Virus record (IMG/VR): IMGVR_UViG_3300042275_000327 | Location: 83,627 to 147,626 of that record | Source: a virus | Lineage: Duplodnaviria; Caudoviricetes | Reading direction: 5' to 3' (one strand) | DNA length: 64,000 nt | Shown: positions 6,041 to 58,851 of the stretch, piece by piece | Layout of the letters: each line of letters starts with the position of its first letter | Numbering within the stretch: position 1 is the stretch's first letter | Program-made: the position numbers and the translations under genes | Notes under the pieces: generated by a model | What the model saw: the letters and a program-made list of their open reading frames with translations, nothing else | The model's database searches: none | Told to the model about the DNA's origin: nothing

Positions 6041-6481
6041 TTATTTTTTTCCTGTTGATCCAAAACCTCCAGATCCTCTCTCAGTTTCTTCAAGGGATTC
6101 TACCTCAACAAAAGCAGTTTCCTGTGTGTATGTTCTGCAGATAACTAACTGAGCAACTCTATCACCAACATCAACATAAAAAGGTTTGTCAGAGGAATTA
6201 AAAAGAATTACTCCTATCTCCCCACGATAATCACAGTCGAGAGTCCCAGGACTGTTCAGAACCATTATTCCTTTTTTAAGAGCCAATCCAGACCTAGATC
6301 TAATCTGCCCTTCATATCCTTCTGGAATCTTCACATGAAGACCAGTCTTCACAAGAACAGCTTTTCCTGGACTGATCTTATGGACATTATTACTTCTGAG
6401 ATCAATTCCAGAGGAACCAGAAGTCTCTGGTTTCAACTCAAATTTCTGACTTGTACTGTCAAAATAATACTTTACTTCCAT
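6041..6481 (-). CDS. dut: dUTPase (trimeric)
   Basis: GIDL, RSRSGLA, GTLDCDYRGEI, RGSGGFGSTG. Confidence 0.97.
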   Translation of the reverse strand: MEVKYYFDSTSQKFELKPETSGSSGIDLRSNNVHKISPGKAVLVKTGLHVKIPEGYEGQIRSRSGLALKKGIMVLNSPGTLDCDYRGEIGVILFNSSDKPFYVDVGDRVAQLVICRTYTQETAFVEVESLEETERGSGGFGSTGKK

Positions 6482-21723: not shown

Positions 21724-23868
21724 ATGTTTATCAAAAATGTATATATGAAGAATTTTGGAAATGTCCAAGAACAAAGACTAGACTTCACTGAAGGATTGAC
21801 TCTCTTCAGTGGAAATAATGGAGAAGGAAAGAGTACTATTCTTCGATGTCTTACTCTTCTTTTATTCAATCAGACAACAGGAAAACTCTCTGATTATATA
21901 AGATGGGGAACTGATGGATTTGAAATCTCTACTGAATTGACTCATAAGGGACAAGATCTAAAGATCTCTTTTTCTTATTCAGAAAAGTCTTCTAACAGAG
22001 AAGTCAGTGTCCTGAATACATCTGATAAGTATCAGAATTCTGCAGCTTTGGTATATTTGGATGAGCTTTTTGACTCTAAGAGAGCTCTCTCTTCTATTGT
22101 CTCTTTTGAGAATGAGATTGATCTAATTACAACTTCTCCTTCTGAGAGAAGAGAATACCTAAAAAGAATTTATGATCTGAATTTCAAGAACGAATTGAAT
22201 CAAATCATTTCAGAAAAGAACTCCTCAGAGAAAGAAGTCCAGAAACTTAGTGGGGAGATCTCAGCTTTAGAGTCAATGACTTTTGAAAGACTTATGCCAG
22301 ACAGACTTCCATTTTCTAAAGAGGTATATGATCAGAAGCTTTCAAATCTTGAATCAGTTCAGTCTCTAATTTCTAGTCTCAAACGACAGAAAGAGGATGA
22401 AGAATCAAATAAGAAGAAAGTAGAGACTCTTGAATATGATATCTATAAATTAGATAAGAAAATTGAAACACAAAAAGAAAACATCAGTAACTCTGAAAAG
22501 CAAATCATAGATACCAAGAAAAAAGATTCAGAAATTGTTCTTGATATTCCTGCTATAGAAGAAGTCTTTAATGAAGAAAAAGAAAATCTTCTGAGTGACA
22601 AAGAAGTTCTAAAAAGTAAGATAGATTCTTTAAAATCAAAGTTAAGTAATCTTGAAGAACCCAGCTTGGATCTTGAGTCTCTAGATGTTTCAGGAACTAG
22701 AGAAGAAGTTTACAATTTTCAGTATCAGATCAATGATCTTGAGAAACAGATAAAGACATTTGAATCAGGTAAGTGTCCTACTTGTGGTCATGAAGTAGAT
22801 AAGTCTTTTTTAGACAACTCTACTAAGAGATTAGAAAATCTAAGGGATTTATGGACAAACAAGAAAAAAGAATTAGAAGAGAAAGAAGAGCTAAGGTCTT
22901 CATATCAAGAATCTCTAAAAGATTATGAAAAAAGGAAGAGAGAGCTAGAATCACAAATAAAAGATTCTATTTCAACTCTAGCTTCAATTGAAAAAGATTG
23001 TTTACATATTGAAGAAAAGAAGCAGTCAAAGATCAATTTGGAGAAAGCTAACTTTGAACATCTCAAGTCAGTAAATCAACAAAAAATTAAAGAAGAAGAG
23101 AATAAAATTGTCTCTTATAATGAAGTAATGAATTCCTCTATTGAAGATAGAGACAGACTCTCAGAGGATCTTCAGAGCTTACAGGAGAAACTCTCATCTT
23201 TAAGTAATATAACTACTCAACTAGAAGAACAAAACTCTCTAGAAGTCTCTCTGAGAACTGATATAAAGATGTATGATGGTGTTGTATCTTCTAATGAAGA
23301 AAAGAAAAAGTTAAATGAGATTCAAAGTAAGAAGGAAGATGAAAGAGATGAGTCTTTAGTAGAAAAGAAAAAAGAACTTTTACATTCTCAAGAAGATGTC
23401 TCTTTAGCTGAATTTTCTTATAAGATTTTATCTAAGGAATTTCCTTCTTTCGTTATTTCTAGGATGATTAGTTCTCTTACTTTCTATGTGAATGAATTTC
23501 TTTCTAAGGTGTATCCTAACTATAATATTGAGATCGTAGAAAGTAAGAATTCATTAAGAGTATTGTATGGACCAAATAGATCTGATGTGAAGCTAGCTTC
23601 TGGGTTTGAACAACAGATCTTCTCTTTTGCTTGGAAATATGCTCTTGGCAAGATTCAAAATTATGGAATTCTAATTCTAGATGAGGTCGACTCAGCTGCT
23701 TCTGATGAGAATTCAGAAAAGTTCTATTCAACTCTTGCTAAAATGGATAATTGTTTTAAACAAATTTTTGTTGTTACTCATAAACAAGAAATCAAAGACC
23801 TTTTGGCAAATGATTATGATGCTTCAATATATGAGGTTACAAAAGGAAATTATGAAAAGGTAGTGTAG
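21724..23868 (+). CDS. sbcC: SbcC/Rad50-like ATPase (gp46)
   Basis: GNNGEGKS, coiled coil with CPTC hook, ASGFE signature, LDE Walker B, VTH. Confidence 0.93.
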   Translation: MFIKNVYMKNFGNVQEQRLDFTEGLTLFSGNNGEGKSTILRCLTLLLFNQTTGKLSDYIRWGTDGFEISTELTHKGQDLKISFSYSEKSSNREVSVLNTSDKYQNSAALVYLDELFDSKRALSSIVSFENEIDLITTSPSERREYLKRIYDLNFKNELNQIISEKNSSEKEVQKLSGEISALESMTFERLMPDRLPFSKEVYDQKLSNLESVQSLISSLKRQKEDEESNKKKVETLEYDIYKLDKKIETQKENISNSEKQIIDTKKKDSEIVLDIPAIEEVFNEEKENLLSDKEVLKSKIDSLKSKLSNLEEPSLDLESLDVSGTREEVYNFQYQINDLEKQIKTFESGKCPTCGHEVDKSFLDNSTKRLENLRDLWTNKKKELEEKEELRSSYQESLKDYEKRKRELESQIKDSISTLASIEKDCLHIEEKKQSKINLEKANFEHLKSVNQQKIKEEENKIVSYNEVMNSSIEDRDRLSEDLQSLQEKLSSLSNITTQLEEQNSLEVSLRTDIKMYDGVVSSNEEKKKLNEIQSKKEDERDESLVEKKKELLHSQEDVSLAEFSYKILSKEFPSFVISRMISSLTFYVNEFLSKVYPNYNIEIVESKNSLRVLYGPNRSDVKLASGFEQQIFSFAWKYALGKIQNYGILILDEVDSAASDENSEKFYSTLAKMDNCFKQIFVVTHKQEIKDLLANDYDASIYEVTKGNYEKVV

Positions 23869-26909: not shown

Positions 26910-26938
26910 TAGTTTTGTTTGTGGTAGGAGAAAATAAA

Positions 26939-27970
26939 GTGTATAGTTTTAATGGAATAAATGAAGCTTTGGTAGTGATGTCTAAAGAGGTTTTAGAAAA
27001 AGGAGTGTTCAGAAAGACTCCAGGATTTCAGGCAGAAAACTCTAATAGATGTTTGGAGCTTCCTTTTCCTATAATCATTGAAATGAATCATCCTGAGGCA
27101 AGGAAAGTAAAAATTCCAGAAAGAAAATGGAATTCTACTTTACCATATGCTGAATCTTTGTGGTTAGCATTAGGATGGAATAGTTTGGATGATCTTCCTG
27201 GAAAATATGTAAAGAGTCTTTATAACTTTTCTGATGATGGACATTACTGGAGGGCAGGTTATGGTCCCAGGATTCGTCACTATAATGGTCTCACTGAGCA
27301 GTATTCAATTGGAGTATTTGGAAATTTCTATGATTGGGTACCAGAAGTAGATCAATTGAAGTATGTGTATGAAACATTAAAGAAAGATCCAAATTCTAGA
27401 CAAGCTCTTATTACTATTCATGATCCCATGAAAGATTCCAAAATAGATCTTGTTACTAAAGATCAGCCTTGTACTAGATCTCTTCATTTTATGGTTGTAG
27501 AAGATAAGCTAAATCTTTATACCACAATGAGATCAAACGATCTCCTTTGGGGATTTTCCGCTGTGAACAATTTCAATTTTACTTTTATGCTAGAATATAT
27601 GAGTAAACTTTTGAATATTCCTATGGGAAAGTATTATCATATTGCTCATAATTTTCATATCTATGAGGATTTCATAGAAAAGGTTAGAAAAATTTCAGAG
27701 TTTTCAATTGAAGAAGCAATAGAAATGGATTCAAGACAATTTAAAGAAGTTGTTCCATTCAAAGAAGGTTATACATTAAAAGATTTTGATAAAGATATTA
27801 TCAAAGTGTTTACAACACAAGATATGTTCTTTATAAGACCAGAGAGCATAGAAAAGAGATATCAGAGTTTTCTTGATGAAGGAAGAGATAAATTCTTCAA
27901 TGATTGGCTAACTGTATTTTATAAATATCACATAAGAAAGAGGAACAAAAATGAACAAAAATCTAACTAG
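26939..27970 (+). CDS. Thymidylate synthase homolog, probable dUMP hydroxymethylase
   Basis: Catalytic DQPCT; MRSNDLLWGFSAVN with the uracil-specifying Asn; HNFHIY; GTG start after AGGAG; neighbour of 5hmU-DNA kinase. Confidence 0.85.
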   Translation: MYSFNGINEALVVMSKEVLEKGVFRKTPGFQAENSNRCLELPFPIIIEMNHPEARKVKIPERKWNSTLPYAESLWLALGWNSLDDLPGKYVKSLYNFSDDGHYWRAGYGPRIRHYNGLTEQYSIGVFGNFYDWVPEVDQLKYVYETLKKDPNSRQALITIHDPMKDSKIDLVTKDQPCTRSLHFMVVEDKLNLYTTMRSNDLLWGFSAVNNFNFTFMLEYMSKLLNIPMGKYYHIAHNFHIYEDFIEKVRKISEFSIEEAIEMDSRQFKEVVPFKEGYTLKDFDKDIIKVFTTQDMFFIRPESIEKRYQSFLDEGRDKFFNDWLTVFYKYHIRKRNKNEQKSN

Positions 27971-28511
27971 ACAAATTCTTCATCATCGTAAGATGTTGAA
28001 CGTTCAAAGAATGTCAGGATCTCCAAAGATCAGAAGTTATAATTTAGCTGAGCATAGCTATTTTGTAGCTACAATGTTTGAAGAATTTGCAAGAGAAGAA
28101 CAACTAGAATATACTACAGATACATTGTATGTAATTCTCAGGCATGATATTATGGAGGTATTCACAGCAGATCTTCCTTATCCTGTTAAGAATTTTAATG
28201 AGAAAACAAAAGAGGCTTGGGAACTTATTGAAAGAGAAGTCTATGAAGGTGGTAAAGAAAGGTTTATCACTATGATGACTGATGAAGAGATAAAATCTAG
28301 ACTTACTGAAAAACAATTCATCTTGATGAAATCTTGTGATATTCTGGATTTGTATCTTTTCTGCTTAGAAGAAAGGCAGCTAGGGAATCATTCTCAACCT
28401 ATCCTTAAGATTATCAATAATTGTGAAGATATTTTAAATTATTGGAATGTTCCAAGTATACTGTATGTAATAGAAGATTTGAAAAAAGGAATACAAGGAG
28501 AAGATGAGTGA
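27951..28511 (+). CDS. HD-domain 5'-deoxynucleotidase (YfbR-like)
   Basis: NLAEHSY, RHDIMEVFTADLPYPVK, KSCD. Confidence 0.85.
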   Translation: MNKNLTRQILHHRKMLNVQRMSGSPKIRSYNLAEHSYFVATMFEEFAREEQLEYTTDTLYVILRHDIMEVFTADLPYPVKNFNEKTKEAWELIEREVYEGGKERFITMMTDEEIKSRLTEKQFILMKSCDILDLYLFCLEERQLGNHSQPILKIINNCEDILNYWNVPSILYVIEDLKKGIQGEDE

Positions 28512-28906
28512 GAGCAATTACAACAGAAGAATTTGAAAAATATATTGATGAAATCTTCAGTGAAATGAAGAAGATACTTATAGAGAAAAATAGGTCTTAC
28601 GGTTCTGCTTCATTTGAAGGAGACAATCTTGCTATACTAGGAAATTATTTCAGACTCACAGACAAGATCAATAGATACAAAAAGTTGATGCAAAACTATA
28701 TTTCTTCAGGTGCTCTGGGATCAGAAATTGGAGAGACTGTTCAAGATACAGTGAGAGACATCTTTGGCTATGCAACTATTGGATTGACAATTCTTGAATT
28801 GATGAATGAGCAAGAGGAATCTTTTCCTGGAGAAAATCTTAGGAAAGAAGGATTTGATCTAGAATATTATCCTTTTGGGTATGATAGTAAAAAGGATTGT
28901 GAATGA
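28508..28906 (+). CDS. DUF1599/Nmad1-like nucleotide-modification-associated protein
   Basis: KNRSYG, RLTDKINR, ETVQDTVRDIFGY. Confidence 0.8.
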   Translation: MRAITTEEFEKYIDEIFSEMKKILIEKNRSYGSASFEGDNLAILGNYFRLTDKINRYKKLMQNYISSGALGSEIGETVQDTVRDIFGYATIGLTILELMNEQEESFPGENLRKEGFDLEYYPFGYDSKKDCE

Positions 28907-29466
28907 GTCATGTAGCAGTTTCAGGTGTTCATGGAATTGGAAAAACTACTCTAGTCAAGGAATTGACTAGAGTAGACAATAGTTTATTCTTAGAAGAACA
29001 AGCAAGAAAACTTCTTGACACAAAATATTATTTCAAGGATGTAAATTCTAATTTATCTGTATTCATGGATTTTCAGAATGAAGTCCTAGATAATCAGATT
29101 GAGCTTTTGTTGAGATTCAAGAATGATAGATTTGTTACTGATAGAACACCAATAGATTCTCTTGCTTATGTAACAGAAAGACTAGGAGCAGAGAGATATC
29201 TGTACTCTTATTTCTATGAGTCCTATATAAAAAGAATAAAAGATATTCTATCGGAAATTGATTTTGATACTATCTATTTTTTGAATTTTGATGTGGAGTA
29301 TGAATGCTTCTGGAAGAACAAAGAAGATAGCCAAAGAAATTTGTCTCCTATGTATATGTTTTCATTGAATGAGATCATGATGAACTCCTATGTTAATACC
29401 TTCAATATTCCAATTAAGATTATTGAATCAAATCTCTCATTAGAAGAAAGGAAGAAATATCTATGA
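28903..29466 (+). CDS. P-loop nucleotide monophosphate kinase (AAA_28-like)
   Basis: GVHGIGKTT, DRTPIDSLAY. Confidence 0.85.
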   Translation: MSHVAVSGVHGIGKTTLVKELTRVDNSLFLEEQARKLLDTKYYFKDVNSNLSVFMDFQNEVLDNQIELLLRFKNDRFVTDRTPIDSLAYVTERLGAERYLYSYFYESYIKRIKDILSEIDFDTIYFLNFDVEYECFWKNKEDSQRNLSPMYMFSLNEIMMNSYVNTFNIPIKIIESNLSLEERKKYL

Positions 29467-30878
29467 AAAAAATTGCATATGTAGTTCATGCTGGTGACAC
29501 TAATGGTGGATTCCCACAGCATTCTGAAATAATAATTAAGACTTTAAAAGAGCTAGGAAATATTGTAGATTTTTATTATCTCCAGTATAGATCTAGTCCT
29601 TCAAAGAGAATAGAAGAAAAGATAGAGATTCTTAATTCCACAAATGGAGTTGGAAATAAGGATGGAAAGACTATTCTTTTTGATAAAGGTGAAGGAACCG
29701 GATTATGGTTTGAACCAGAGTCAGGATGGGTTCATAATGGATTTTGCTATAAAGAAAAAGAACAAAAAATTCAATTCAGAAATAAAATGGAAGAATATGA
29801 TGGAGTTTTTTGGCATACACCATTTTGGTTTAAACAAAATTCAACATTAAAAGATACAGATTGGCCAATCATGCTTGATGCAAAAAATCCAGTTCAAGTG
29901 GGTATGGTTCATGATGCTAACCTTAGATCAAATTGTGCTTGGATTCATTTTATTGAAGAGAAATTTGATTATATTCTTACAGTTCATCCAGCATCATATA
30001 ATTCTGCTTCTGTTCTTAGAACTCCGAGAGTTATGATTTTTAATCCACAGGATCTATCTATGATAGATAGAAATAGATCTGGATATGATTCTTTCAATGA
30101 TCCAACTCTATTTATTCTTCAAAACTGGAAATCCTCAAAGAGAGGTGCAGATTTTATACGTGCTATTCCTTATTTGAATGACTCAATAAAGTCATATATT
30201 GGAGGAGGTGGTATAGAATGGCGTTATATGAATTCTGAAGAAAAATGTAAAAGTATCTACTATTCTTCTGAATTATCAGATCCAAATCGTTCTGATTTAT
30301 GGAATAAGAGAATAATTGATAACGCTAAAACTCATCCTGGATTTGAATACCTTGGTTGGATTACAGAGAAAACAAGAGATGAGATCCTTTCTAGGACTTC
30401 TTTCTTTATTGATCCTGCATGGTATAAAATAAATTATACTCTTGGAGCTCATTTTTCGAGAACTCTTATAGAAGCAATGAAATTTGGTGTTGTCCCAATT
30501 GCAAGAGGACTTGGGCTTTCTAATAATGATGAAGGAAAAGGAGATGTTTTTAATTCAGGAATTAATTATATTAATGTACCTTCTAATTCTTCTCCCGAAG
30601 AATTTGCCAATATAATAGAAGATTCATTAAAAATGTCAGAGAATGAGTACAATAAAATTGTAAATAACAACTATGAAATTCTCAAGAATTTTGATAGATT
30701 TAATGTTGCAAAAGAATATCTAAAATTACTAGATGGAGAACCCTGTGGATGGTACAACAAATTTGAAGTAGGAAATCCTACCTATGATTTTATTCAGAAG
30801 GCAAATAGTCAATGGTATGGAACTGGGGATAAGAGAACTTTTTTCTTTAAGGAAAAGAGAAAGAAAGTTTTATTTTAG
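29463..30878 (+). CDS. GT-B fold glycosyltransferase (probable DNA base-modifying)
   Basis: GGFPQH N-terminus, MVHD, WKSSKRG, LIEAMKFGVVPI. Confidence 0.75.
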   Translation: MKKIAYVVHAGDTNGGFPQHSEIIIKTLKELGNIVDFYYLQYRSSPSKRIEEKIEILNSTNGVGNKDGKTILFDKGEGTGLWFEPESGWVHNGFCYKEKEQKIQFRNKMEEYDGVFWHTPFWFKQNSTLKDTDWPIMLDAKNPVQVGMVHDANLRSNCAWIHFIEEKFDYILTVHPASYNSASVLRTPRVMIFNPQDLSMIDRNRSGYDSFNDPTLFILQNWKSSKRGADFIRAIPYLNDSIKSYIGGGGIEWRYMNSEEKCKSIYYSSELSDPNRSDLWNKRIIDNAKTHPGFEYLGWITEKTRDEILSRTSFFIDPAWYKINYTLGAHFSRTLIEAMKFGVVPIARGLGLSNNDEGKGDVFNSGINYINVPSNSSPEEFANIIEDSLKMSENEYNKIVNNNYEILKNFDRFNVAKEYLKLLDGEPCGWYNKFEVGNPTYDFIQKANSQWYGTGDKRTFFFKEKRKKVLF

Positions 30879-30886
30879 AGGAATAG

Positions 30887-31948
30887 ATGAACAAAAGAAT
30901 AGTCTGTGATATTGATGATACAATATGTTTTACAACTAATAGAGATTGGGAAAATGCAACACCAATACCTGCTGTAATAGAAAAAATTAATTTTCTCTAT
31001 GAAAATGGTTGGGAGATAATTCTTCAAACTGCTCGTGGTCAGGTTTCTTGTAATGGAGATTCAAAGAAGGCTGAAGAAAAATATGGTGATATTATCAGAA
31101 CTTGGTTAAAAGAGCATAATGTAAAATATCATATTCTTTCTTTTCAAAAATATCTTGCTTCTTATTACATAGATGATAAATCATTAAGACCAGATGAATT
31201 TTCAAAACTAAAGATAGAGCTACTAAAAGAGGGAAGATCTGGAGCTCGAGTTGAAAGACATGGAGATAGAGTATATAAAACCTTTATAGAAAGAGATAAA
31301 GCTCTTCTGGAAGCTTCTTGGTATAACCAGGCAGAGGGATTAGTTCCTATCCCAAAATTATTTAGTGTGATTGATAAAACAATATGTATTGAATATATTG
31401 AAAATGTAGAATTATCATATCCTAGTATTAGTTTTATTAAGGAGTGCTTAGATACATTTTCTATGACTGACTCTTCTGATACAGAAAAATTTTCTTCCTA
31501 TATAGACAGAATCAATAGGGATCATTCTAATTCTTTACAATCTATTTTTAATAAAAATAAATTGGAAGATCTATTTCAGATATCCAAAGAAGATATTCTG
31601 ATACTAGATAAAAATTTAAGTTTTTGTCATGGTGATTTTTCTATTGAAAATATTCTTATTACTCCTGCTAGAGACTATGTTCTCATAGATCCAATTTATA
31701 AGAAAAATATTTATTCAAGTTGGCTTCTTGATGCATCTAAGATGCTTTTATCATTAAGAAAATATGGAAGGAATACATTGTATTCAAATCTATTTAATTT
31801 TATATCTTTAAAGTCAGGATTAAGTAGAAAAACTATTCTATTTTTGGAATTTTGTCACTGGATAAGAATTTATAAATATGCAACTCTTGAAGAAAAAGAT
31901 ATGATAACTAAAAATATTTTGGAGGTTTTTAATGCTTTCAAAGATTAA
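30887..31948 (+). CDS. HAD phosphatase fused to APH/choline-kinase-like phosphotransferase
   Basis: DIDDTIC, TARG, YIDDK; then GRSGA..VYK, CHGDFSIENI, LIDP. Confidence 0.85.
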   Translation: MNKRIVCDIDDTICFTTNRDWENATPIPAVIEKINFLYENGWEIILQTARGQVSCNGDSKKAEEKYGDIIRTWLKEHNVKYHILSFQKYLASYYIDDKSLRPDEFSKLKIELLKEGRSGARVERHGDRVYKTFIERDKALLEASWYNQAEGLVPIPKLFSVIDKTICIEYIENVELSYPSISFIKECLDTFSMTDSSDTEKFSSYIDRINRDHSNSLQSIFNKNKLEDLFQISKEDILILDKNLSFCHGDFSIENILITPARDYVLIDPIYKKNIYSSWLLDASKMLLSLRKYGRNTLYSNLFNFISLKSGLSRKTILFLEFCHWIRIYKYATLEEKDMITKNILEVFNAFKD

Positions 31949-32435
31949 AGAACTTAAAAAAGAAGGAAAGAAGATAGGGTTCACCTGCTCTTCTTTTGAT
32001 CTATTACATGCAGGTCATGTCTTAATGCTGGCAGAATCTAAAGCTAATTGTGATTTTCTAGTTGTTGGATTATTGTCTGACCCAACAAATGATAGACCAT
32101 TAACAAAAAATAAACCAATCCAATCCTTGATGGAAAGATGGATTCAACTACAATCTGTAAGTTATGTAGATCTTATAATCCCATTTGATTCTGAGAAAGA
32201 TCTTTATGATTTACTCCTTCTTCTTCAACCAGATATACGATTTGTTGGAGAGGAGTATAAAGGAAAAAACTTTACAGGAAGTGATTTACAGAAAATTGAA
32301 ATCTTTTTTAATTGTAGAAAGCATTCTTTTAGTTCTTCAGACTTAAAGAAAAGAATAAAAGAAACAGATATCAAAGAAGTTTCAGAAGAAGAAAAAGTAG
32401 AGGAATTAGAAAAATGCAATATAAAGTTGCAATAA
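31932..32435 (+). CDS. HxGH cytidylyltransferase (TagD/RfaE-like)
   Basis: FDLLHAGH, LVVGL, ERW, SSSDLK. Confidence 0.9.
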   Translation: MLSKIKELKKEGKKIGFTCSSFDLLHAGHVLMLAESKANCDFLVVGLLSDPTNDRPLTKNKPIQSLMERWIQLQSVSYVDLIIPFDSEKDLYDLLLLLQPDIRFVGEEYKGKNFTGSDLQKIEIFFNCRKHSFSSSDLKKRIKETDIKEVSEEEKVEELEKCNIKLQ

Positions 32436-33304
32436 GATCCTACAATAGATCAAATATTCTAAAAGAATGTACATTATCATTATTAAAAAAATATAATTTT
32501 GAAGAATCCAAAATTTTCATTTTTGTAGGTGATATGAATCAACTGGAGGAATATCAAAAAGTAATAAAAGGATCATATAATTTTGTTGTTGGAAAAGTTG
32601 GAATAGCAAATATTGATAACTTCATAACAGATTATTTTGATGAAGGTGAAAGAGTTATATGCTTAGATGATGATATCACAGGATTATTTGAAGTAGAAAA
32701 ATATAAAGATCCAAAATCAAAAAGAGAAATTGTATCCATAGAAGAATATTTTGAGTATGGCTTTAATTCTTTAGATAAATTAGGATTATACTGCTTTTCA
32801 ATTAATGTTATAAGTAACTATCTTTTTCTTTCTAATTATCCTTTTGTTACTATTGGACCTCAAATGGTTCCTGGTTGTTGCTATGGAATAATAAATAGAA
32901 AGGATATAAGAATTACTTATAACCATTTGGATGATTCACAGAGAACTGCTCTTATACTTGAAAAAGACCAAAGTATTTTGAAATTTACAAGAGCTACTTT
33001 AAAAGTGGATTATGGAAAGCTATCTGGTGGATTACAAAGCTCAGATATGAGAGGATCTAATTCTTTAGATAGAAAAAATAAGACATTAAGAATATGTGAA
33101 GAATTTAAGAAAGAAGAATTTGGAAAATTCTTTAAAGAACCAAAATTTGATGATAAATATAATCTATATCATATAAGTCTTAATTCAATGTCATTTTTTA
33201 AGAAAAATTATGGTTGGAAAAGTCAGAAGTATTTTGAGTATTTTGAAAATATAGAAGAGGAAAGAGGGATTGAAAAACAAACAAAAAGATGTTCTCTATT
33301 CTAA
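32414..33304 (+). CDS. GT-A fold glycosyltransferase (TAGT/GREB1-like DNA base glycosyltransferase family)
   Basis: IRSYNRS, CLDDDI, DD..RT, GGLQS. Confidence 0.75.
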   Translation: MQYKVAIRSYNRSNILKECTLSLLKKYNFEESKIFIFVGDMNQLEEYQKVIKGSYNFVVGKVGIANIDNFITDYFDEGERVICLDDDITGLFEVEKYKDPKSKREIVSIEEYFEYGFNSLDKLGLYCFSINVISNYLFLSNYPFVTIGPQMVPGCCYGIINRKDIRITYNHLDDSQRTALILEKDQSILKFTRATLKVDYGKLSGGLQSSDMRGSNSLDRKNKTLRICEEFKKEEFGKFFKEPKFDDKYNLYHISLNSMSFFKKNYGWKSQKYFEYFENIEEERGIEKQTKRCSLF

Positions 33305-34322
33305 TGTATCTGAAGAAAATATAAAATCAAGAGCTCCTATTTTTGATGAAAAGAATCTTTCTCTCCTATTTCATTGGATAGAAGAAAGATATAAAATTCA
33401 TAAAAAGAAAGATGTTCTAAAATTGGATTCTCCTTGGACAGATGATAAAATTCTTCAAGATTATAGATTTACAAATGTTAGAAGAGAACACGACAGAGAA
33501 ACAAAATGGTACATAGAACATATTGCTAAAAATAGCTCTTTGTCTATTGAAGACAAGATTTACAATACTTTTTTATTCAGAGCATGGAATAAATCAAAAA
33601 CTATGGAGATCCTTGGAGGACCTTGGAACTATCCTGATTTTATGGATAAGGAAAGGTATAGATCTGTAGTAGAAAGATACTCTACAGATCATCCTGAGTA
33701 TGTCTGGTATACTGCAGCATTCAATTGTGGTGGATTGAAATCATCACAAAAGTTTCCAGATGGTGAAGGATATGCAAGAGCTCATAAAGAAGAAAAAGCA
33801 AAAATGGAAAAGGATTGGGAACAGTGTATTCCAATTCGTATGTTTCATATTCCTCCCCAGATGGAAAAGAAAGATATTGTAAATAGAATTCTTAATTCTA
33901 AAGACCAACCTGAGTGTTTCAACATCATTCAGGAAGTCAGAGGATTCTCAACATTTCTTGCATATCAGGTTTTTGTAGATCTTACATATATAGAAGATTT
34001 TCCTTTTAGTGAGAATGAATTTACAGTATGTGGTCCAGGATGTAGAAGAGGAATTGATGAAGTAGTAAAAGACAGAAATGGATTATCTTATGAAGAGATT
34101 ATCTTTTGGATTAGAGATAATCAAAAAAGTCTTTTTGAAAGATTTAATATAGATCCTATAGAATTATTTGATGATCTTACTATATATGATAGATGTCTGA
34201 ATGTAATGAGTCTAGAATCCTCATTTTGTGAAATATCAAAATATCTAAAAGCATATTATGAAACAGGAAGACCAAGGGTTAGATATAGAAGCTCTGAAGA
34301 TTCTACTAAAAAATTGTTCTAA
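33270..34322 (+). CDS. 5-hydroxymethyluracil DNA kinase (aGPT-Pplase1 family)
   Basis: WIEERYKI..PWTDDKILQDYRFTNVRREHDRET, FLAYQVFVDL, GPGCRRGI, ESSFCEISKY. Confidence 0.88.
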   Translation: MKNKQKDVLYSNVSEENIKSRAPIFDEKNLSLLFHWIEERYKIHKKKDVLKLDSPWTDDKILQDYRFTNVRREHDRETKWYIEHIAKNSSLSIEDKIYNTFLFRAWNKSKTMEILGGPWNYPDFMDKERYRSVVERYSTDHPEYVWYTAAFNCGGLKSSQKFPDGEGYARAHKEEKAKMEKDWEQCIPIRMFHIPPQMEKKDIVNRILNSKDQPECFNIIQEVRGFSTFLAYQVFVDLTYIEDFPFSENEFTVCGPGCRRGIDEVVKDRNGLSYEEIIFWIRDNQKSLFERFNIDPIELFDDLTIYDRCLNVMSLESSFCEISKYLKAYYETGRPRVRYRSSEDSTKKLF

Positions 34323-34341
34323 AAAGGAGTATACTCAATAT

Positions 34342-34866
34342 ATGAATATATTTTATTTACATGAAAATCCAACTCTATCAGCTAAAGCAATGACGAATAA
34401 ACATATTGTCAAGATGATTATTGAGGCAGCTCAATTGCTGTCTACAGCTCATAGAGTTCTTGATGGTTATCCAGTCAAAAAAGGAAGATGGACAACCTAT
34501 CTTCTTGAAGACAAACAAAGAAATGATACTCTCTATAAGTCTACTCATTATAATCATCCATGTGCAGTCTGGGTAAGAGAGTCCTTTGAGAATTATTACT
34601 GGCTATACAAGCATTTTCTTGCTCTATGTCAGGAATATAGAAATCGATATGGAAAGATTCATGAATCAGAAAACAAGTTAGGACACATACTTAGAAGATA
34701 TCCTGAGTCTATGAAAAAGAAAAAGTTTACTCCTCCAGCTCTTGCTATGCCAGAAGAATACAAGGTTGAGGGAGATCCTGTTCAGTCATATAGAAATTAT
34801 TATGAAGCAGAGAAGCTTAAGAATCCAGAAGACATTCAAAGATATAAAGAGGTATTAGGATTATGA
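34342..34866 (+). CDS. Pyrimidine-dimer glycosylase/DenV-superfamily protein
   Basis: MNIFYL..KHIVKMIIEAAQLLST, YKSTHYNHPCAVW, AMP, YRNYY; start reassigned. Confidence 0.8.
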   Translation: MNIFYLHENPTLSAKAMTNKHIVKMIIEAAQLLSTAHRVLDGYPVKKGRWTTYLLEDKQRNDTLYKSTHYNHPCAVWVRESFENYYWLYKHFLALCQEYRNRYGKIHESENKLGHILRRYPESMKKKKFTPPALAMPEEYKVEGDPVQSYRNYYEAEKLKNPEDIQRYKEVLGL

Positions 34867-35849
34867 TCTATATTCTAGGAGATACACATATACGAAAAGA
34901 AGAGCCTTATTATTCTGCTGTGAATAATGTGTTTAAAGAGATCTATGAAGAGTGTAACGAAGGAGATACTATTATTCAATTAGGAGATTTCTTTCACACA
35001 TACAAGCCATTTCCAAAAGAATATTCTCTTGCCTTCTATTGGATAGAAAAGCTTTCTTCTAAAAATGTAAAATTGTATATAATGGCAGGAAATAATGCTC
35101 ATGAATATCATCATCTTCAGAAAACATATGCTATTGATCCTTTAGATAGTTTTGACAATGTGATTCTTATCAAAGATATTGAGAAGCTTACTGTAGAGAA
35201 TATCTCATTCTTAGTACTTCCTTGGATTCCTGAAAGTAGAGTGAAATCTTTGAAGCTTGAAGATGTTTGTGTGATGTTAAAGAATTATATCAACAATCTT
35301 GAGTCTTCTGATATTGACTATTTTCTATATCATTATGAGGATGAGACTGTCTTTATGGGAGGAGAAAATAGAGGTATCGATTTTTCTTTTGTAGAGTCCA
35401 TGATTCCTGGAATCAAGAGAATTGGAGGACATATCCATCTTCAAAGTGACAATTATCTAGGAACTCCTTTTCAGACAAGATTCGATGAATTAGGACAAGT
35501 AGGAAGATATTATACTGTTGAAGATAATTATTTGAAATCTCACGAACTCAAAAACTATGTGAAACATCTTAAGATAGACTTTGACTCTGATTGTCCAAAG
35601 CTAGAATTTAAAGAGCAGAAGATTGTTGTAAATATTTCTGATGCTCCATCAGTAGATTCTGTCTATGAAAAATTTAAGGACAGGCATATCTTCATCAATG
35701 ATATAAAACTGAGGTTTTCAGAAAATAGAACTGAAACTCTTGCTGAAGGAATGGACTCAGAATCCTCCATAAAAGAGCTGTTGAATGAATATATAACAAT
35801 CAACAATGTAGACAGAAAGACATCTTCTTATCTTTTAAACCTTTTTTAG
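34863..35849 (+). CDS. sbcD: SbcD/Mre11-like nuclease (gp47)
   Basis: GDTH, LGDFF, GNNAH, GHIH, YLGTP. Confidence 0.88.
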   Translation: MIYILGDTHIRKEEPYYSAVNNVFKEIYEECNEGDTIIQLGDFFHTYKPFPKEYSLAFYWIEKLSSKNVKLYIMAGNNAHEYHHLQKTYAIDPLDSFDNVILIKDIEKLTVENISFLVLPWIPESRVKSLKLEDVCVMLKNYINNLESSDIDYFLYHYEDETVFMGGENRGIDFSFVESMIPGIKRIGGHIHLQSDNYLGTPFQTRFDELGQVGRYYTVEDNYLKSHELKNYVKHLKIDFDSDCPKLEFKEQKIVVNISDAPSVDSVYEKFKDRHIFINDIKLRFSENRTETLAEGMDSESSIKELLNEYITINNVDRKTSSYLLNLF

Positions 35850-55196: not shown

Positions 55197-55205
55197 TTTT
55201 TAGAT

Positions 55206-55277
55206 GGTCAGGTAGCAAATCGGTTTTGCAACACACTTTTAATGTGTCCTAGATGAGTTCGACTCTCATCCTGATCA
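55206..55277 (+). tRNA. tRNA-Lys(UUU)
   Basis: Cloverleaf; ACACA-CTTTTAA-TGTGT. Confidence 0.9.
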
Positions 55278-55293
55278 AAAAGAGGATTTATAT

Positions 55294-55650
55294 ATGTATG
55301 AAACAGAATATTTTACTTTGTCATTAAGAAAAGATGGATGGCATATCAAGATTGAAAACAGAAATAGATATGCAAAAGAAATATTTGAACAGCTAGATGA
55401 AGCTGAGAACTGGGTAAAAAAGAATTATCCTGATAATTGGATTAGTCATGAAATAAAGAAGTCTATCGGTCATCTGATGACTTTTAAAAAGTGGAAAGAA
55501 GGTGTAAAAACCAAATGTTTCATTGATGATGATGGTTGGGGAGACCTTCTTGATGAGAATTACAATACTATAAGAGAGGGATATTCTCCTTCTGATTATA
55601 GAGGACTTAAACCAAGAAAAGCAAAATATATTTTATGGTATAACAGATGA
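55294..55650 (+). CDS. Hypothetical protein
   Basis: 118 aa with RBS. Confidence 0.65.
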   Translation: MYETEYFTLSLRKDGWHIKIENRNRYAKEIFEQLDEAENWVKKNYPDNWISHEIKKSIGHLMTFKKWKEGVKTKCFIDDDGWGDLLDENYNTIREGYSPSDYRGLKPRKAKYILWYNR

Positions 55651-56069
55651 TTAAGCAAGTTATTATAATGAGAAAAGATCTGAATATGCGGAAGGGAAAA
55701 ATGATTGCACAAGGTAGTCACTCTTCCATGAAGATCTTTTTTGACAGAATGAGACAGTCAGTGAGCTATCCTTTTTCTTCAATGGGGGATGATGTTACTG
55801 AAGTAGTCACCTATGAATTAGAAAATGTAACACCAGAAATGATTGAATGGATTGAAGGAGCTTTCACTAAAATTGTACTTGGCGTCAATTCACTAGAAGA
55901 ATTATTGGCAATAAAGGATAAAGCAGAGGAAGCTGAACTTCCAGTAGCATTGATTGAAGATAATGGATGGACTGAATTTGGAGGAATAAAGACTATTACT
56001 TGTATTGCTATTGGTCCAGATGATTCAGAAAAGATAGATAAGATTACAAAAGACTTGAAACTATTGTAA
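55647..56069 (+). CDS. pth2: Peptidyl-tRNA hydrolase type 2
   Basis: RKDLNMRKGKMIAQGSH, KIVL, DNGWTE, TCIAIGP, ITKDLKLL. Confidence 0.93.
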   Translation: MIKQVIIMRKDLNMRKGKMIAQGSHSSMKIFFDRMRQSVSYPFSSMGDDVTEVVTYELENVTPEMIEWIEGAFTKIVLGVNSLEELLAIKDKAEEAELPVALIEDNGWTEFGGIKTITCIAIGPDDSEKIDKITKDLKLL

Positions 56070-56074
56070 ATAGA

Positions 56075-56161
56075 GGAATGAACAACTGACAAGGAGTCAG
56101 GATGGTTTGCTAAACCAATCGATCAGTAATTCTGATTTGGGTTCGAAACCCAGTCATTCCG
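56075..56161 (+). tRNA. tRNA-Ser(GCU)
   Basis: GGAATGA/TCATTCC, G73, loop TTGCTAA, long variable arm; atypical D-arm. Confidence 0.85.
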
Positions 56162-56166
56162 TTTTT

Positions 56167-56241
56167 GCTCCTGTAGGCCAATTCGGTAGAGCCATCAGAT
56201 TTAGGATCTGACAAGTAAGAGTTCAAATCTCTTCAGGAGTA
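56167..56241 (+). tRNA. tRNA-Leu(UAG), short variable loop
   Basis: TCAGA-TTTAGGA-TCTGA. Confidence 0.88.
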
Positions 56242-56257
56242 TTAAAGAGGATAGATT

Positions 56258-56653
56258 ATGAGATTTACAAGAAATATAACAGAGTTAACTGATAATGAAG
56301 TATTTGTGTTTGGATCCAATCTTTCAGGAAGACATGGAGCAGGAGCTGCAAAACAGGCTCTGAAATGGGGAGCTAAATTAGGAAGAGGAATTGGTCTATA
56401 TGGAAAAACATATGCTATCCCTACAGTAAATGCTACAATTACTTCTAAGCTACCATTAAGAGATATTAATGACTATGTAAAAGAATTCATTGATTTTGCG
56501 AGGTCTCATAAAGAACTAGATTTTCTTGTGACTGCTATTGGATGTGGATTAGCGGGATGGACTCCAGAAGATATTGCTCCTATGTTCTTAGAAGCTACAG
56601 TTTTAGAAAATGTAAGTCTTCCAAAAGAATTCTGGAAAGTATTGAATAGATAA
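56258..56653 (+). CDS. Macro-domain-like phage protein (A1S_2505-like)
   Basis: FVFGSNLSGRHGAGAA, YAIPT, FLVTAIGCGLAG. Confidence 0.75.
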   Translation: MRFTRNITELTDNEVFVFGSNLSGRHGAGAAKQALKWGAKLGRGIGLYGKTYAIPTVNATITSKLPLRDINDYVKEFIDFARSHKELDFLVTAIGCGLAGWTPEDIAPMFLEATVLENVSLPKEFWKVLNR

Positions 56654-56664
56654 AGGAAGAATGA

Positions 56665-57099
56665 ATGTATTGGAAATATAGATTGAGTGATATAAAATCC
56701 TCTTTTTGGAAAAAGATTCATCATTATGTAATGAAGAAAGCTTATCCTTGGTGGGACTATTCTTGTTTTTATGAAATGGCTTCTGAATGGCTTTTTGATG
56801 CTTCTAAGAATTTTAAAGAAAAAGGATCTCATGTAAACCATAAAAAAGAAGCAAAAACTACTCTGATTGTAGCTGAACTTTGTAAGAGAATCTCAGAAGG
56901 GTTTTCTTCAGATAATAGCTACAGGACTGCCTTTGGATGCAAGATAGAAGATAAGAACTTTGATTTTAGAATTGAATTTTCAGAAGAAGAAGGAGAACAA
57001 TACAGAAAATGGGCTGAATACCAAAAAAGAGATGATGATTTCTATATTGAATATCTTTGTAAGATGCTTAATAAGTATAGTAAGACTTGGTGGGATTGA
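56665..57099 (+). CDS. Hypothetical protein
   Basis: 144 aa ending in WWD. Confidence 0.65.
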   Translation: MYWKYRLSDIKSSFWKKIHHYVMKKAYPWWDYSCFYEMASEWLFDASKNFKEKGSHVNHKKEAKTTLIVAELCKRISEGFSSDNSYRTAFGCKIEDKNFDFRIEFSEEEGEQYRKWAEYQKRDDDFYIEYLCKMLNKYSKTWWD

Positions 57100-57106
57100 A
57101 TAACTA

Positions 57107-57181
57107 GCTCCTGTATCCCAATTTGGTCGAGGAAATTGATTTAAAATCAATACAGTACGAGTTCGAATCTCGTCAGGAGCA
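57107..57181 (+). tRNA. tRNA-Leu(UAA), short variable loop
   Basis: ATTGA-TTTAAAA-TCAAT. Confidence 0.88.
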
Positions 57182-57195
57182 TAGAGGAAAAAGAG

Positions 57196-57405
57196 ATGAT
57201 AGCAAGTAGAGAAATTTGTGATTTTTGTGGAGAAGATGTAACAGTTGGTTTTTCTGTTCCAAATTGTATTTGGAATCTTGTGGCAAAACCTGATGAGATC
57301 CTTTGCTTAAGATGTTTCACTAGAAGATGTGATCAGCATCTAATTGAATGGGACAGATATATAAAATTTCATCCTGTTTCTTTGAAAAAACATTTAGGAA
57401 TTTGA
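57196..57405 (+). CDS. Small Zn-finger protein
   Basis: CDFC..W..LCLRCF. Confidence 0.6.
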   Translation: MIASREICDFCGEDVTVGFSVPNCIWNLVAKPDEILCLRCFTRRCDQHLIEWDRYIKFHPVSLKKHLGI

Positions 57406-57458
57406 TATACTATTATTATAGAAGATTATTGAAAATAGAGTGTAGGAAAAGAAATATT

Positions 57459-57531
57459 GTAAGAATCGTATAATGGTTTATTATGGAAGGCTTCCAACCT
57501 TCAGATAAGGGTTCAATTCCCTTTTCTTACT
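57459..57531 (+). tRNA. tRNA-Gly(UCC)
   Basis: GAAGG-CTTCCAA-CCTTC; U73. Confidence 0.9.
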
Positions 57532-57534
57532 TTA

Positions 57535-57683
57535 AAGAAAGACTATGATGGAAAAATTAGACATGCCTCTTGCAACCAGAGGTGACTATTGAAGAAGTAT
57601 GCCAGATAAAAAGCTTGGAAGCCTACTGGATGAAATAATTAGGTCAGATAGTCATGCAGGTTAGAATCCTGCTAGTCTTTCTT
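57535..57683 (+). ncRNA. tRNA-like RNA with giant variable arm
   Basis: 11-bp acceptor-like stem, D-like arm, CCTCT-TGCAACC-AGAGG, ~65-nt insert closed by TGACTATT/GATAGTCA, GCAGG-TTAGAAT-CCTGC. Confidence 0.65.
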
Positions 57684-57685
57684 TT

Positions 57686-57758
57686 GGTGATATCGTATAA
57701 TGGCTTATTACATCAGACTGTCGATCTGAATATCAGAGTTCAATTCTCTGTATCATCG
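57686..57758 (+). tRNA. tRNA-Asp(GUC)
   Basis: TCAGA-CTGTCGA-TCTGA; G73. Confidence 0.9.
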
Positions 57759-57764
57759 AAAAAT

Positions 57765-57846
57765 GCCTTGTTATACTTCTAAGGACGGAGGGTGGACTGT
57801 AAATCCATCGCTTATAGCTGGGTAGGTTCGATTCCTACACGAGGCA
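57765..57846 (+). tRNA. tRNA-Tyr(GUA)
   Basis: GTGGA-CTGTAAA-TCCAT; long variable arm. Confidence 0.88.
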
Positions 57847-57851
57847 AATTT

Positions 57852-57960
57852 AGGACTGTGGCGGAATGGTAGACGCAACAGGAACCGATGTGAACAGGAA
57901 GGCTTGAATGGTTCTAATGCTGAATGTTCGATTGCAGAGTTCAAATCTTTGCCAGCCCTA
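57852..57960 (+). ncRNA. tRNA-Leu-like scaffold with replaced anticodon arm
   Basis: AGGACTG/CAGCCCT, Leu-type D-arm, T-arm; no 7-nt anticodon loop. Confidence 0.65.
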
Positions 57961-57964
57961 AAAA

Positions 57965-58072
57965 GCCACTGACGAGTGGAACGTAAGGTGGTGCAAGCCT
58001 CTCAACGATGCTCAAATCGTACTACATGAGGGAACGTAAGCCCCAAGCCACAACAGAGAATGGAGTGTGGCA
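57965..58072 (+). ncRNA. Unknown multi-hairpin RNA
   Basis: GC-rich; three stem-loops; duplicated GGAACGTAAG. Confidence 0.5.
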
Positions 58073-58076
58073 CTAT

Positions 58077-58144
58077 CGCTGGAAGTCAAGGTGACGACAC
58101 GGTCTCATAAGCCGTGGATGGGGGCTCGATTCCCCCTCCAGCTA
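58077..58144 (+). tRNA. tRNA-Met(CAU), initiator-like, reduced D-arm
   Basis: C1xU72 mismatch, loop CTCATAA, 68 nt. Confidence 0.75.
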
Positions 58145-58176
58145 TGGGGGTAAACTGTTTACCATGATATGGTATT

Positions 58177-58226
58177 TGTAGGACTGTGGAGGAATTGGAA
58201 TACGCTACCGTTAAGGGGGTATGATT
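58177..58226 (+). repeat. Truncated 5' copy of the tRNA-like gene at 58638
   Basis: TGTAGGACTGTGG.GGAAT(T)GG.ATACGCTACCGTTAAGG.GGTA.GATT repeated at 58635-58683. Confidence 0.85.
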
Positions 58227-58256
58227 TATCAGTGCTATAAGCACAAAGGAGATTTT

Positions 58257-58508: not shown

Positions 58509-58547
58509 TTATGCGAGGTTACAACCAAGGTTGTAAAAGCATAACCC

Positions 58548-58575
58548 TTGCATTTGCAAGCAGTTGTGGTATAAT
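58548..58575 (+). promoter_or_regulatory. Sigma70 extended -10 promoter
   Basis: TTGCAT-16nt-TATAAT with TG. Confidence 0.6.
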
Positions 58576-58848: not shown

Positions 58849-58851
58849 AAT

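Follow-up and report, generated by a model that had tools for sequence, protein, structure and literature searches.

A conserved gene module in an uncultivated tailed phage, proposed to glycosylate 5-hydroxymethyluracil in DNA without a DNA kinase

Ten co-directional genes (O1 to O10) of an uncultivated tailed phage, known from IMG/VR record IMGVR_UViG_3300042275_000327, appear to encode a route to sugar-bearing thymine that does without the usual DNA kinase. The window that we analysed is the right-hand 64 kb of this record (64,000 nucleotides), and the ten genes lie at 26915-34866 on its plus strand. We lean, with modest confidence, towards a reading in which 5-hydroxymethyluracil (5hmU) is made before replication and is then O-glycosylated by the GT-B glycosyltransferase O5, working with the clade-1 aGPT-Pplase (HMUDK_hel) protein O9 and using a nucleoside diphosphate (NDP)-sugar that the phage makes itself; O8 would provide a second sugar or linkage. 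To our knowledge, all thymidine hypermodification pathways worked out so far begin with a DNA kinase and continue with an amino-acid:DNA transferase (AADT). An earlier, sequence-only reading of this stretch had described ten tightly packed and mostly overlapping genes. Indeed, all ten open reading frames (ORFs) are found on the plus strand, and neighbours overlap by 4-65 nt, the sole exception being an 8-nt gap between O5 and O6.

The entry enzyme is O1, which a genome-wide family search identifies as the only thymidylate synthase (TS) homologue of the phage; the same search found no ThyX (PF02511). We aligned O1 with M6 gp58, two Ackermannviridae homologues, T4 gp42 and RB69 gp48, and took the diagnostic positions from a published analysis (PMC13326640). 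O1 scores 74-78 bits against M6 gp58 and the Ackermannviridae/phiA8-29 enzymes, and 20-27 bits against the cytosine-specific T4 gp42 and RB69 gp48. It retains the catalytic cysteine (Cys186 in the motif KDQPC, equivalent to C146 of ThyA) and has, in the same motif, an Asp at the position of ThyA L143, as hydroxymethylases do. An acidic residue at this position distinguishes a hydroxymethyl from a methyl product, and the replacement D169N is the mark of 5-hydroxy-dCMP synthases (PMC13326640); O1 keeps Asp169 (RSND), where the RB69 5-hydroxy-dCMP synthase has Asn. At the equivalent of ThyA 177, O1 has Asn (G-x4-N), the same as M6 gp58 and the Ackermannviridae enzymes, whereas T4 gp42, MilA and the enzyme of Agathobaculum phage AB434P2 have Asp, the alignment with T4 gp42 being somewhat ambiguous here because of a one-residue insertion. 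By its residue signature, then, O1 is of the dUMP-hydroxymethylase type and not a thymidylate synthase, which bears out what the sequence-only reading had claimed for the entry step. The same signatures rule out O1 as a dCMP hydroxymethylase or a 5-hydroxy-dCMP synthase.

The genes around O1 are consistent with this assignment. O2, an HD-domain YfbR-like nucleotidase, directly follows O1, just as gp59 follows the TS gene in M6, and an O2 homologue also comes after the TS gene in three related loci (L011, L013 and L018; L numbers denote related loci throughout). It probably clears dTMP or dUMP. A dUTPase encoded elsewhere in the window is the likely supplier of dUMP for O1, and a dUTPase homologue lies within the module itself in L013 and L020-L026. 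O4, a P-loop protein with a dNK match over its full length and the Walker A motif GVHGIGKT at residue 8, holds the position of the 'nucleotide kinase' found beside TS homologues in the RB69, DLP3 and RL38J1 clusters (PMC13326640); it is probably a 5hm-dUMP kinase, and it lies outside the conserved core described below. Because O1 carries these signatures, is followed by an HD nucleotidase as in M6 and is accompanied by a dUTPase, we conclude from the sequence that the phage would make 5hm-dUTP and place 5hmU in its DNA. O3 has a homologue in the close relative L011 (1.5e-26); the DUF1599 label that it had been given falls under the hidden Markov model (HMM) threshold, PF07659 giving only the marginal match listed in Table 1.

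The enzymes that would normally act next are not found. Three components have been distinguished in known systems: the P-loop 5hmU DNA kinase (5-HMUDK, PF18748), the clade-2 aGPT-Pplase, which is the AADT (PF18724), and the clade-1 protein (PF18723, HMUDK_hel), which is dispensable in vitro and has no assigned activity (PMC5889632, PMC8989533). Across the 86%-complete genome neither PF18748 nor PF18724 gave a match at E<=10, and phmmer searches of the genome with M6 gp54 and gp51 returned nothing. The sequence-only reading had seen no amino-acid or amine:DNA transferase and had proposed a whole-genome HMM search for aGPT-Pplase2 as a check; with that search run and PF18724 not found, its observation stands. 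Its premise that a 5hmU-DNA kinase is present has to be given up. PF18748 is absent, O4 bears no relation to M6 gp54, and all that O9 represents is the helical clade-1 partner; for these reasons we read the pathway as kinase-free. The label aGPT-Pplase1 given to O9 is correct in that O9 matches PF18723, and wrong insofar as it implied the 5hmU DNA kinase. We also considered O4 as a divergent 5-HMUDK and rejected it, as it shows no similarity to M6 gp54, RB69 gp45 or AB434P2 gene 3; its matches in the PDB are confined to Walker A motifs.

In place of a DNA kinase, the cluster encodes what looks like a sugar-nucleotide branch. The N-terminal 115 residues of O6 match PDB entries 1xpj (6e-13) and 9iqw (1.7e-11). 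The latter is AfhF, the experimentally characterized D-arabinose 1,5-diphosphate phosphatase of phage HY126, to which the O6 HAD domain is 34% identical (Foldseek); RB69 gp51, the AfhF counterpart, matches at 1.6e-15. An AlphaFold2 model of O6 built from 58 homologues (predicted local distance difference test (pLDDT) 92.8) gives the second domain a choline-kinase/APH fold, with fold matches at E ~1e-7 to LicA, ChoK, maltokinase, APH, fructosamine kinase and MTR kinase. Among the 58 homologues, HAD motifs I-IV are intact (D8, D10, T48, K88, D96 and D97 invariant), and K131, HGDxxxxN and D268 of the kinase domain are likewise invariant. On the strength of the model, the second domain is a candidate anomeric kinase of the APH/choline-kinase fold. 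The closest profiles to O7 are RfaE domain II and TagD (8e-15), its PDB matches are ECT and TagD, and it has the motif HAGH at residue 26; we predict that it makes an NDP-activated donor. In related loci, an O7-type gene always adjoins the HAD-kinase gene.

In the phage UDP-arabinose (Afh) route, a kinase generates the 1,5-bisphosphate, a HAD phosphatase removes the 5-phosphate and nucleotidylation completes the donor (PMC13326640). By analogy, O6 and O7 seem to follow the logic of that route. A genome-wide search found no SIS domain (PF01380, arabinose-5-phosphate isomerase), and the host must accordingly supply the sugar phosphate with which the route begins. As O6 has its nearest precedent in a phosphatase of sugar 1,5-bisphosphates, a sugar is favoured over a polyol-phosphate, the other possibility raised at first. 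The kinase, NDP-activation enzyme and two glycosyltransferases that had been noted in the cluster make most sense as an NDP-sugar branch that supplies DNA glycosylation.

The HAD-kinase fusion is widespread, its family comprising at least 201 clusters, and its pairing with the same nucleotidyltransferase recurs beside TS homologues and a UDP-galactopyranose mutase (L098), in AB434P2 and in a glycan-rich cluster. L098:2678-9800 carries in one run a TS homologue, two genes of 367-381 aa, GLF (the UDP-galactopyranose mutase), the HAD-kinase and the HxGH nucleotidyltransferase, which suggests a furanose sugar on a modified pyrimidine. In Agathobaculum phage AB434P2 (OP172633.1; L006:3838-4500) the TS homologue is annotated 'deoxyuridylate hydroxymethyltransferase'; it has Asp at ThyA-177 and is therefore more likely to be dCMP-specific. 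Next to it lie genes homologous to O6 and O7, one that is thymidylate-kinase-like and two others that encode 328 and 361 aa. The locus, from a 44-kb phage of a gut Firmicute, may represent the counterpart of the sugar module on the cytosine side.

We propose O5 as the candidate 5hmU-DNA glycosyltransferase. It scores 26.1 bits against Glycos_transf_1 (PF00534), for which the cut-off is 26.4, and its homologues pass (30.5 bits for that of L021); a profile of O5 finds only weak BshA matches in the PDB. ESM-Atlas results for O5 and O8 are leads, not proof. For O5, the Atlas features score 0.98-0.99 to viral GT-B clusters, including PF11440, the T4 DNA alpha-glycosyltransferase, and the Atlas model has a template modelling (TM) score of 0.72-0.76 to viral GT1 clusters. 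O8 gives no Pfam match even at E<=5, and PF20691 (TAGT) is not found genome-wide. The 'TAGT-like' label attached to it earlier therefore fails at HMM thresholds, and the likeness comes from ESM-Atlas features and structure only: a feature score of 0.99 to viral clusters of which 20-24% carry TAGT, a model TM score of 0.76-0.80 to viral GT-A proteins, including Tet_JBP fusions, and Atlas neighbours that are TAGT-bearing and GREB1-like viral GT-A clusters. O8 has the sequence DDD at residue 85. Its homologues occur only in L011 (4e-55) and P0002, and a homologue search yielded one 86%-identical fragment. No Tet_JBP domain (PF12851) was found in the genome-wide search.

The module is not confined to this phage. 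O5 has 26 homologues (29-68% identity), and in 7/7 contexts read the GT-B gene adjoins an HMUDK_hel gene. The usual order is HAD-kinase, nucleotidyltransferase, GT-B and HMUDK_hel, with a TS homologue and an HD nucleotidase within a few kb. No Pfam match to the kinase or the AADT lies within 9-10 kb in these module neighbourhoods. The backbones that carry it are diverse: a 144.8-kb relative (L011), 55-95-kb phages with PolIII-alpha (L013-L015, which come from a widespread protein cluster), a phage with PolA (L018), a 109.7-kb contig (L017) and a contig with a uracil-DNA glycosylase-PolA protein (UDG-PolA). In L017, a radical S-adenosylmethionine (radical-SAM)/SPASM gene stands between GT-B and HMUDK_hel (L017:10396-11364), a hint that the modified base is processed further in this lineage.

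An alignment-based scan of IMG/VR yielded 78 loci, which we then scanned with our own HMMs. Where the GT-B is at least 45% identical, the HAD-kinase and the nucleotidyltransferase are present in 9/9 loci. The TS and HD genes are present in 7/9, always with the dUMP-hydroxymethylase signature; on the other two contigs, TS was not seen within the flank. The conserved core comprises O1, O2, O5, O6, O7 and O9. O3 and O8 are shared only with L011, and O4 and O10 are not conserved. A further clade of GT-B proteins (L029-L085, from IMG/VR) is 34-40% identical to O5, and there a dUTPase often lies ~6 kb downstream. Neither the cluster (megablast) nor O5 and O4 (tblastn) had a match among phage records, and a single-sequence related-locus search for O5 and O9 returned no close relatives.

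The constant companion of the GT-B is O9 or its homologue. O9 scores 226.7 bits against PF18723 (cut-off 25) and is 37-39% identical to Ackermannviridae homologues, nearer to those than to the L013 protein. Its AlphaFold2 model (pLDDT 95.7) has as its best PDB match the clade-2 enzyme PUGT (8z2n; Z 10.2, root mean square deviation 3.9 Å over 215 residues), followed by the DUF2419 queuine-salvage enzyme and HhH glycosylases (Z 6-8). Among 68 homologues, Glu321 is invariant and Cys320 is conserved in at least 90%. In a weak profile alignment (E 0.013), Cys320 aligns with Cys247 of clade 2, the catalytic nucleophile of PUGT and M6 gp51 (PMC11472151).

Two loci (L021 and L024) encode the GT-B and HMUDK_hel as a single protein of 837 aa, with a Lys/Glu-rich linker between the two parts. 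The two loci represent the same phage recovered from two metagenomes and do not differ over 21.4 kb. As the DNA of the linker is A-rich, a frameshift artefact is conceivable, yet the two assemblies agree exactly. Fusions with the kinase also exist: HMUDK_hel is fused to a PF18748 kinase in P0048, and SP10 gp186 is a kinase-clade-1 fusion (PMC5889632). In M6 the kinase gene lies immediately upstream of the clade-1 gene. In a maximum-likelihood tree of 19 clade-1 proteins, a small sample of our own choosing, GT-linked and kinase-linked members interleave, and given the well-supported branches the partner must have changed at least twice. The predicted O5-O9 complex scored 0.00, which speaks neither for nor against binding. 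Because of the fusions, the partner switches, the PUGT-like fold and the conserved Cys/Glu, we propose for clade 1 a general role, in which it would handle 5hmU as the partner of whichever enzyme makes the first O-substitution. It may also do covalent chemistry of its own.

A further feature links these enzymes to one another. Counted over six-frame ORFs of at least 100 aa in the whole genome, 4/168 end in LF, namely O5, O8, O9 and an SbcD-like gene, where 0.71 would be expected (Poisson P(>=4) 0.006). Among homologues, the LF tail is present in 8/25 GT-B proteins (several as QxSLF), 7/68 clade-1 proteins, 3/3 O8-type proteins and 0/58 HAD-kinases. Such a distribution suits enzymes associated with DNA or a clamp better than a soluble sugar enzyme, and this split between DNA-side and sugar-side enzymes argues against a cell-envelope role for the transferases. 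The tail resembles the bacterial clamp-binding motif QL[SD]LF, and one hypothesis is that O5, O8 and O9 are tethered to the clamp through it; a phage clamp gene was not found genome-wide (PF02916 none; PF00712 sub-threshold only, E 0.03). A more ambitious version, which we put forward tentatively and with some doubt, would make clade 1, to which no activity has been assigned since 2013, a universal 5hmU subunit that flips the base and possibly forms a C6-Cys bond, with the DNA kinase and the GT-B as interchangeable partners and the LF tail as the tether to the clamp, the product being a hitherto undescribed glycosyl-5hmU made from a phage-synthesized sugar nucleotide other than UDP-glucose.

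What the analysis itself shows is the families and folds, the residue signatures, the conserved gene order and the fusion; from these observations together we infer an order of steps, a sugar donor, DNA as the acceptor and a role for O9. Before replication, the phage dUTPase would supply dUMP, which O1 would hydroxymethylate; O2 would remove competing dTMP, O4 would help to phosphorylate 5hm-dUMP, and 5hmU would replace T in new DNA. The kinase domain of O6 would phosphorylate a host sugar phosphate at C1, the HAD domain would take off the distal phosphate, and O7 would turn the resulting sugar-1-phosphate into an NDP-sugar. After replication, O9 would recognize the 5hmU base and present it to the first O-substituting enzyme, as it may do beside the kinase in M6, SP10 and ViI; here O5, with O9, would transfer the sugar onto the 5hmU hydroxyl in DNA. 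O8 would then add a second sugar or make a different linkage. Such a pathway would end in a base-J-like or oligoglycosyl 5hmU, protecting the DNA against host nucleases.

Several findings weigh against this scheme. The genome has no sugar isomerase that would point to a particular sugar, and the O8 and O5 of this phage do not reach the Pfam thresholds. In about 55 loci with a GT-B 34-40% identical to O5, TS, clade-1, HAD-kinase and nucleotidyltransferase genes are all missing within 10 kb; the GT-B family is therefore wider than the module and is not DNA-specific as a whole. O9 keeps the clade-2 catalytic Cys/Glu pair, which is more than a passive presenter needs and hints at chemistry outside the model. 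Finally, the phage is uncultivated and 86% of its genome is in hand; a kinase or an AADT could sit in the missing part.

The retained Cys/Glu pair is the starting point of the strongest alternative, a composite base of the SP-15/YerA41/Carin-5 type. In such a pathway O9 would be a true group transferase, its Cys320 attacking C6 and installing on activated 5hmU a non-sugar linker or phospho-alcohol that the glycosyltransferases then decorate; either the APH-fold kinase, working on DNA, or a phospho-group passed on from the O7 product would provide the activation. PUGT, the best structural match of O9, fits this proposal, as does SP10, which makes glutamyl-thymine with a clade-1 domain only (PMC5889632). 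Moreover, SP-15-like phages carry T bearing a linker, phosphate and oligosaccharide, and they too have an aGPT-Pplase, a TS homologue and NDP-sugar genes (PMC12686479, PMC13697223). The contig that carries an SP-15-type UDG-PolA also has a distant O5 homologue, O7 resembles CCT in addition to TagD and ECT, and the radical-SAM gene of L017 sits between GT-B and clade 1. However, the trio of kinase, HAD and nucleotidyltransferase is fully explained by an Afh-type sugar route, with a HAD homologous to AfhF, and no TagF-, LicD- or Stealth-type phosphotransferase was seen. O5 finds no tblastn match in phage records, which should include SP-15 and YerA41, and from the GT-B/clade-1 fusion one would expect the two to work on the same 5hmU and not one after the other on a linker. 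We consider a composite base unlikely, and retain direct O-glycosylation of 5hmU by O5 with O9 as our reading.

It is very improbable that the sugar genes are instead an auxiliary (moron) set that glycosylates virion proteins or the host envelope, beside a plain, SPO1-like 5hmU module. GT4 and HxGH nucleotidyltransferases are, it is true, typical of cell-wall and capsule pathways, JGI names for homologues include 'capsule biosynthesis phosphatase' and 'glycosyltransferase involved in cell wall biosynthesis', and one HAD-kinase homologue lies in a large glycan cluster without a TS gene. Here, by contrast, the genes are translationally coupled in an early replication block, between the ribonucleotide reductase (RNR) and SbcCD-like genes; the GT-B is always beside clade 1 and once fused to it; the LF tails are common to the transferases and a nuclease; and O8 resembles TET/JBP-associated DNA glycosyltransferases. 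Least credible of all, and given almost no weight by us, is a modified cytosine (glycosyl-5hmC or glycosyl-5-hydroxyC, as in T4 or RB69): the layout of TS homologue, nucleotide kinase, glycosyltransferase, HAD, kinase and nucleotidyltransferase mirrors RB69 and DLP3 (PMC13326640) and the O6-O7 pair is shared with AB434P2, whose TS homologue has Asp at 177, but O1, with its Asn at 177 and its Asp169, falls among the enzymes of M6 and the Ackermannviridae, a dCTPase was not seen in the cluster, a dUTPase and an HD nucleotidase accompany the module, and HMUDK_hel is known from 5hmU systems only.

How does glycosylation of 5hmU by O5 and O9 relate to characterized systems? The clusters of M6, PaMx11, ViI, PhiW-14 and SP10 likewise contain a TS homologue of the dUMP-hydroxymethylase type followed by an HD nucleotidase (PMC5889632, PMC8989533), and they share the clade-1/HMUDK_hel gene and post-replicative chemistry on the 5-hydroxymethyl group. 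Unlike them, the module described here is without PF18748, PF18724 and the pyridoxal phosphate, radical-SAM and flavin adenine dinucleotide-dependent tailoring enzymes; the GT-B stands beside clade 1 in the position that the kinase has in M6, and the NDP-sugar would be phage-made.

The arabinosyl-5-hydroxycytosine systems of RB69, DLP3 and HY126 (PMC13326640) also combine a TS homologue, a nucleotide kinase and GT-B transferases with a three-activity NDP-sugar route. The parts of that route are an APH-fold anomeric kinase, an AfhF-type HAD phosphatase, to which the O6 HAD is homologous, and a nucleotidyltransferase. The base here, in contrast, would be derived from U (Asn177, Asp169) and not from 5-hydroxy-C (D169N). 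The HAD is fused to the kinase, whereas in the RB69/DLP3/HY126 type it is the nucleotidyltransferase that is fused to the kinase. In its fold O7 is an HxGH cytidylyltransferase, in contrast to the MurU/RmlA-fold pyrophosphorylase domain of the Afh type, there is no arabinose-5-phosphate isomerase, and clade 1 is present.

Base J synthesis in kinetoplastids and the phage TET/JBP+TAGT systems (PMC8256090; bioRxiv 10.1101/2023.12.21.572611; PMC13229309) similarly involve O-glycosylation of a 5-hydroxymethylpyrimidine, by a GT-A (TAGT-like) or GT-B enzyme. There the hydroxymethyl group comes from a dioxygenase, whereas here 5hmU would come from a TS homologue before replication. SP-15, YerA41 and Carin-5 (PMC12686479, PMC13697223) share with the module a sugar-laden thymidine, a TS homologue, a dUMP supply, NDP-sugar enzymes and glycosyltransferases, and their relatives carry an aGPT-Pplase. 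Their bases contain a C5 linker and phosphate; their UDG-PolA hallmark was not seen in the parts of our genome examined. In HTVC023P-type pelagiphages, TS, clade 1, HD nucleotidase and a glycosyltransferase are co-located and a kinase is not mentioned (PMC9599517). These are small podoviruses in which gene co-occurrence only is reported, and no NDP-sugar genes, fusion or mechanism are described (PMC9599517). ThyS-associated glycosyltransferase clusters with APH phosphotransferases have been reported from metagenome mining (Pyle et al., bioRxiv 10.1101/2023.12.21.572611), and glycosyltransferases are associated with phage T-dioxygenases (PMC13229309). Glycosyl-5hmU in phage DNA is predicted in the literature; in the papers that we consulted we found no chemical demonstration of it.

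Table 1. Features of the cluster and of related genes; coordinates are those of the window unless a locus is named
Feature	Position	Strand	Length	C-terminus	Supporting match or remark
O1, TS family, dUMP-hydroxymethylase type	26915..27970	+	351 aa		Pfam Thymidylat_synt 2e-18
O2, HD-domain YfbR-like 5'-deoxynucleotidase	27951..28511	+	186 aa		PF12917 9e-19
O3, small protein, weakly DUF1599/Nmad1-like	28508..28906	+	132 aa		PF07659 E 0.054; phrog_1485 3e-13
O4, P-loop deoxynucleoside/nucleotide-kinase fold	28903..29466	+	187 aa		AAA_28 2e-11; dNK 2.6e-8
O5, viral GT-B (GT4-like)	29463..30878	+	471 aa	...KKVLF	Glycos_transf_1 7e-6
O6, fusion of HAD (residues 1-115) and choline-kinase/APH-fold kinase (residues 116-353)	30887..31948	+			TIGR01689 1.7e-19
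O7, HxGH nucleotidyltransferase	31932..32435	+	167 aa		CTP_transf_like 2e-9; RfaE domain II 2e-23
O8, GT-A-like, TAGT/GREB1-like	32414..33304	+	296 aa	...RCSLF	ESM-Atlas features, structure
O9, aGPT-Pplase clade 1/HMUDK_hel, helical HhH-type	33270..34322	+	350 aa	...TKKLF	PF18723 5e-67
O10, Pyr_excise (T4 endonuclease V-like)	34258..34866	+	202 aa		PF03013 2e-10; phrog_624 8e-59
dUTPase/dCTP-deaminase-like	6041..6481	-	146 aa		PF00692 3e-30
SbcD/Mre11-like phosphoesterase	34863-35849		328 aa	...LLNLF	motifs DTH...GDFFH...GNNAHE read by eye; no Pfam match
SbcC-like partner of the SbcD-like gene	21724-23868		714 aa		upstream of cluster
GT-B + HMUDK_hel fusion	L021:9989-12502 (IMGVR_UViG_3300010430_000064)
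GT-B + HMUDK_hel fusion	L024:9989-12502 (IMGVR_UViG_3300006467_000454)

The record as a whole is 147,626 bp long, of the linear class, with 33% G+C and a completeness of 86% (CheckV estimate), and it has been found in wastewater metagenomes of several studies, all of them DNA data sets; no RNA data set is listed for it. From ~14.5 kb on, the plus strand of the window forms a replication and nucleotide-metabolism block, in which genes for RecA, an SbcC-like ATPase and the RNR large subunit come first, then O1-O10 and then the SbcD-like gene. A promoter and terminator scan gave counts near the shuffled expectation and does not define the operon boundaries. The true start of O10 is probably Met29 at 34342, as the phrog_624 match begins at residue 29. 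Conservation does not support O10 as a member of the pathway: it is outside the core and occurs once elsewhere, 4 kb off, in L087.

The window also contains 11 tRNA genes at 55205-61648 (Lys, Leu x2, Gly, Asp, Gln, Ser, Ile, Glu, Thr), and the ARAGORN call for the tRNA at 58637-58714 has a two-base anticodon. The final 100 bases of the record are repeated at positions 243-342, and the final 200 bases are not; this may be a short terminal or an assembly repeat, although the record is classed as linear.

What is new here is the Afh-like sugar-nucleotide branch in a thymine context, together with a six-gene core found across phage backbones, GT-B/clade-1 fusions set against kinase/clade-1 fusions, and the LF tails. 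The set is compact (~6 genes) and could be reconstituted on 5hmU-DNA, and it is relevant to restriction and CRISPR evasion, to the sequencing failures of hypermodified phages and to DNA-labelling tools. The long-orphan clade-1 aGPT-Pplase gains a testable role, as partner of the first O-modifying enzyme. If our reading is right, the module would be a second, kinase-free way to decorate 5hmU, used in several unrelated phage backbones from different metagenomes, and base-J-like or oligoglycosyl thymine would be expected in bacterial viruses.

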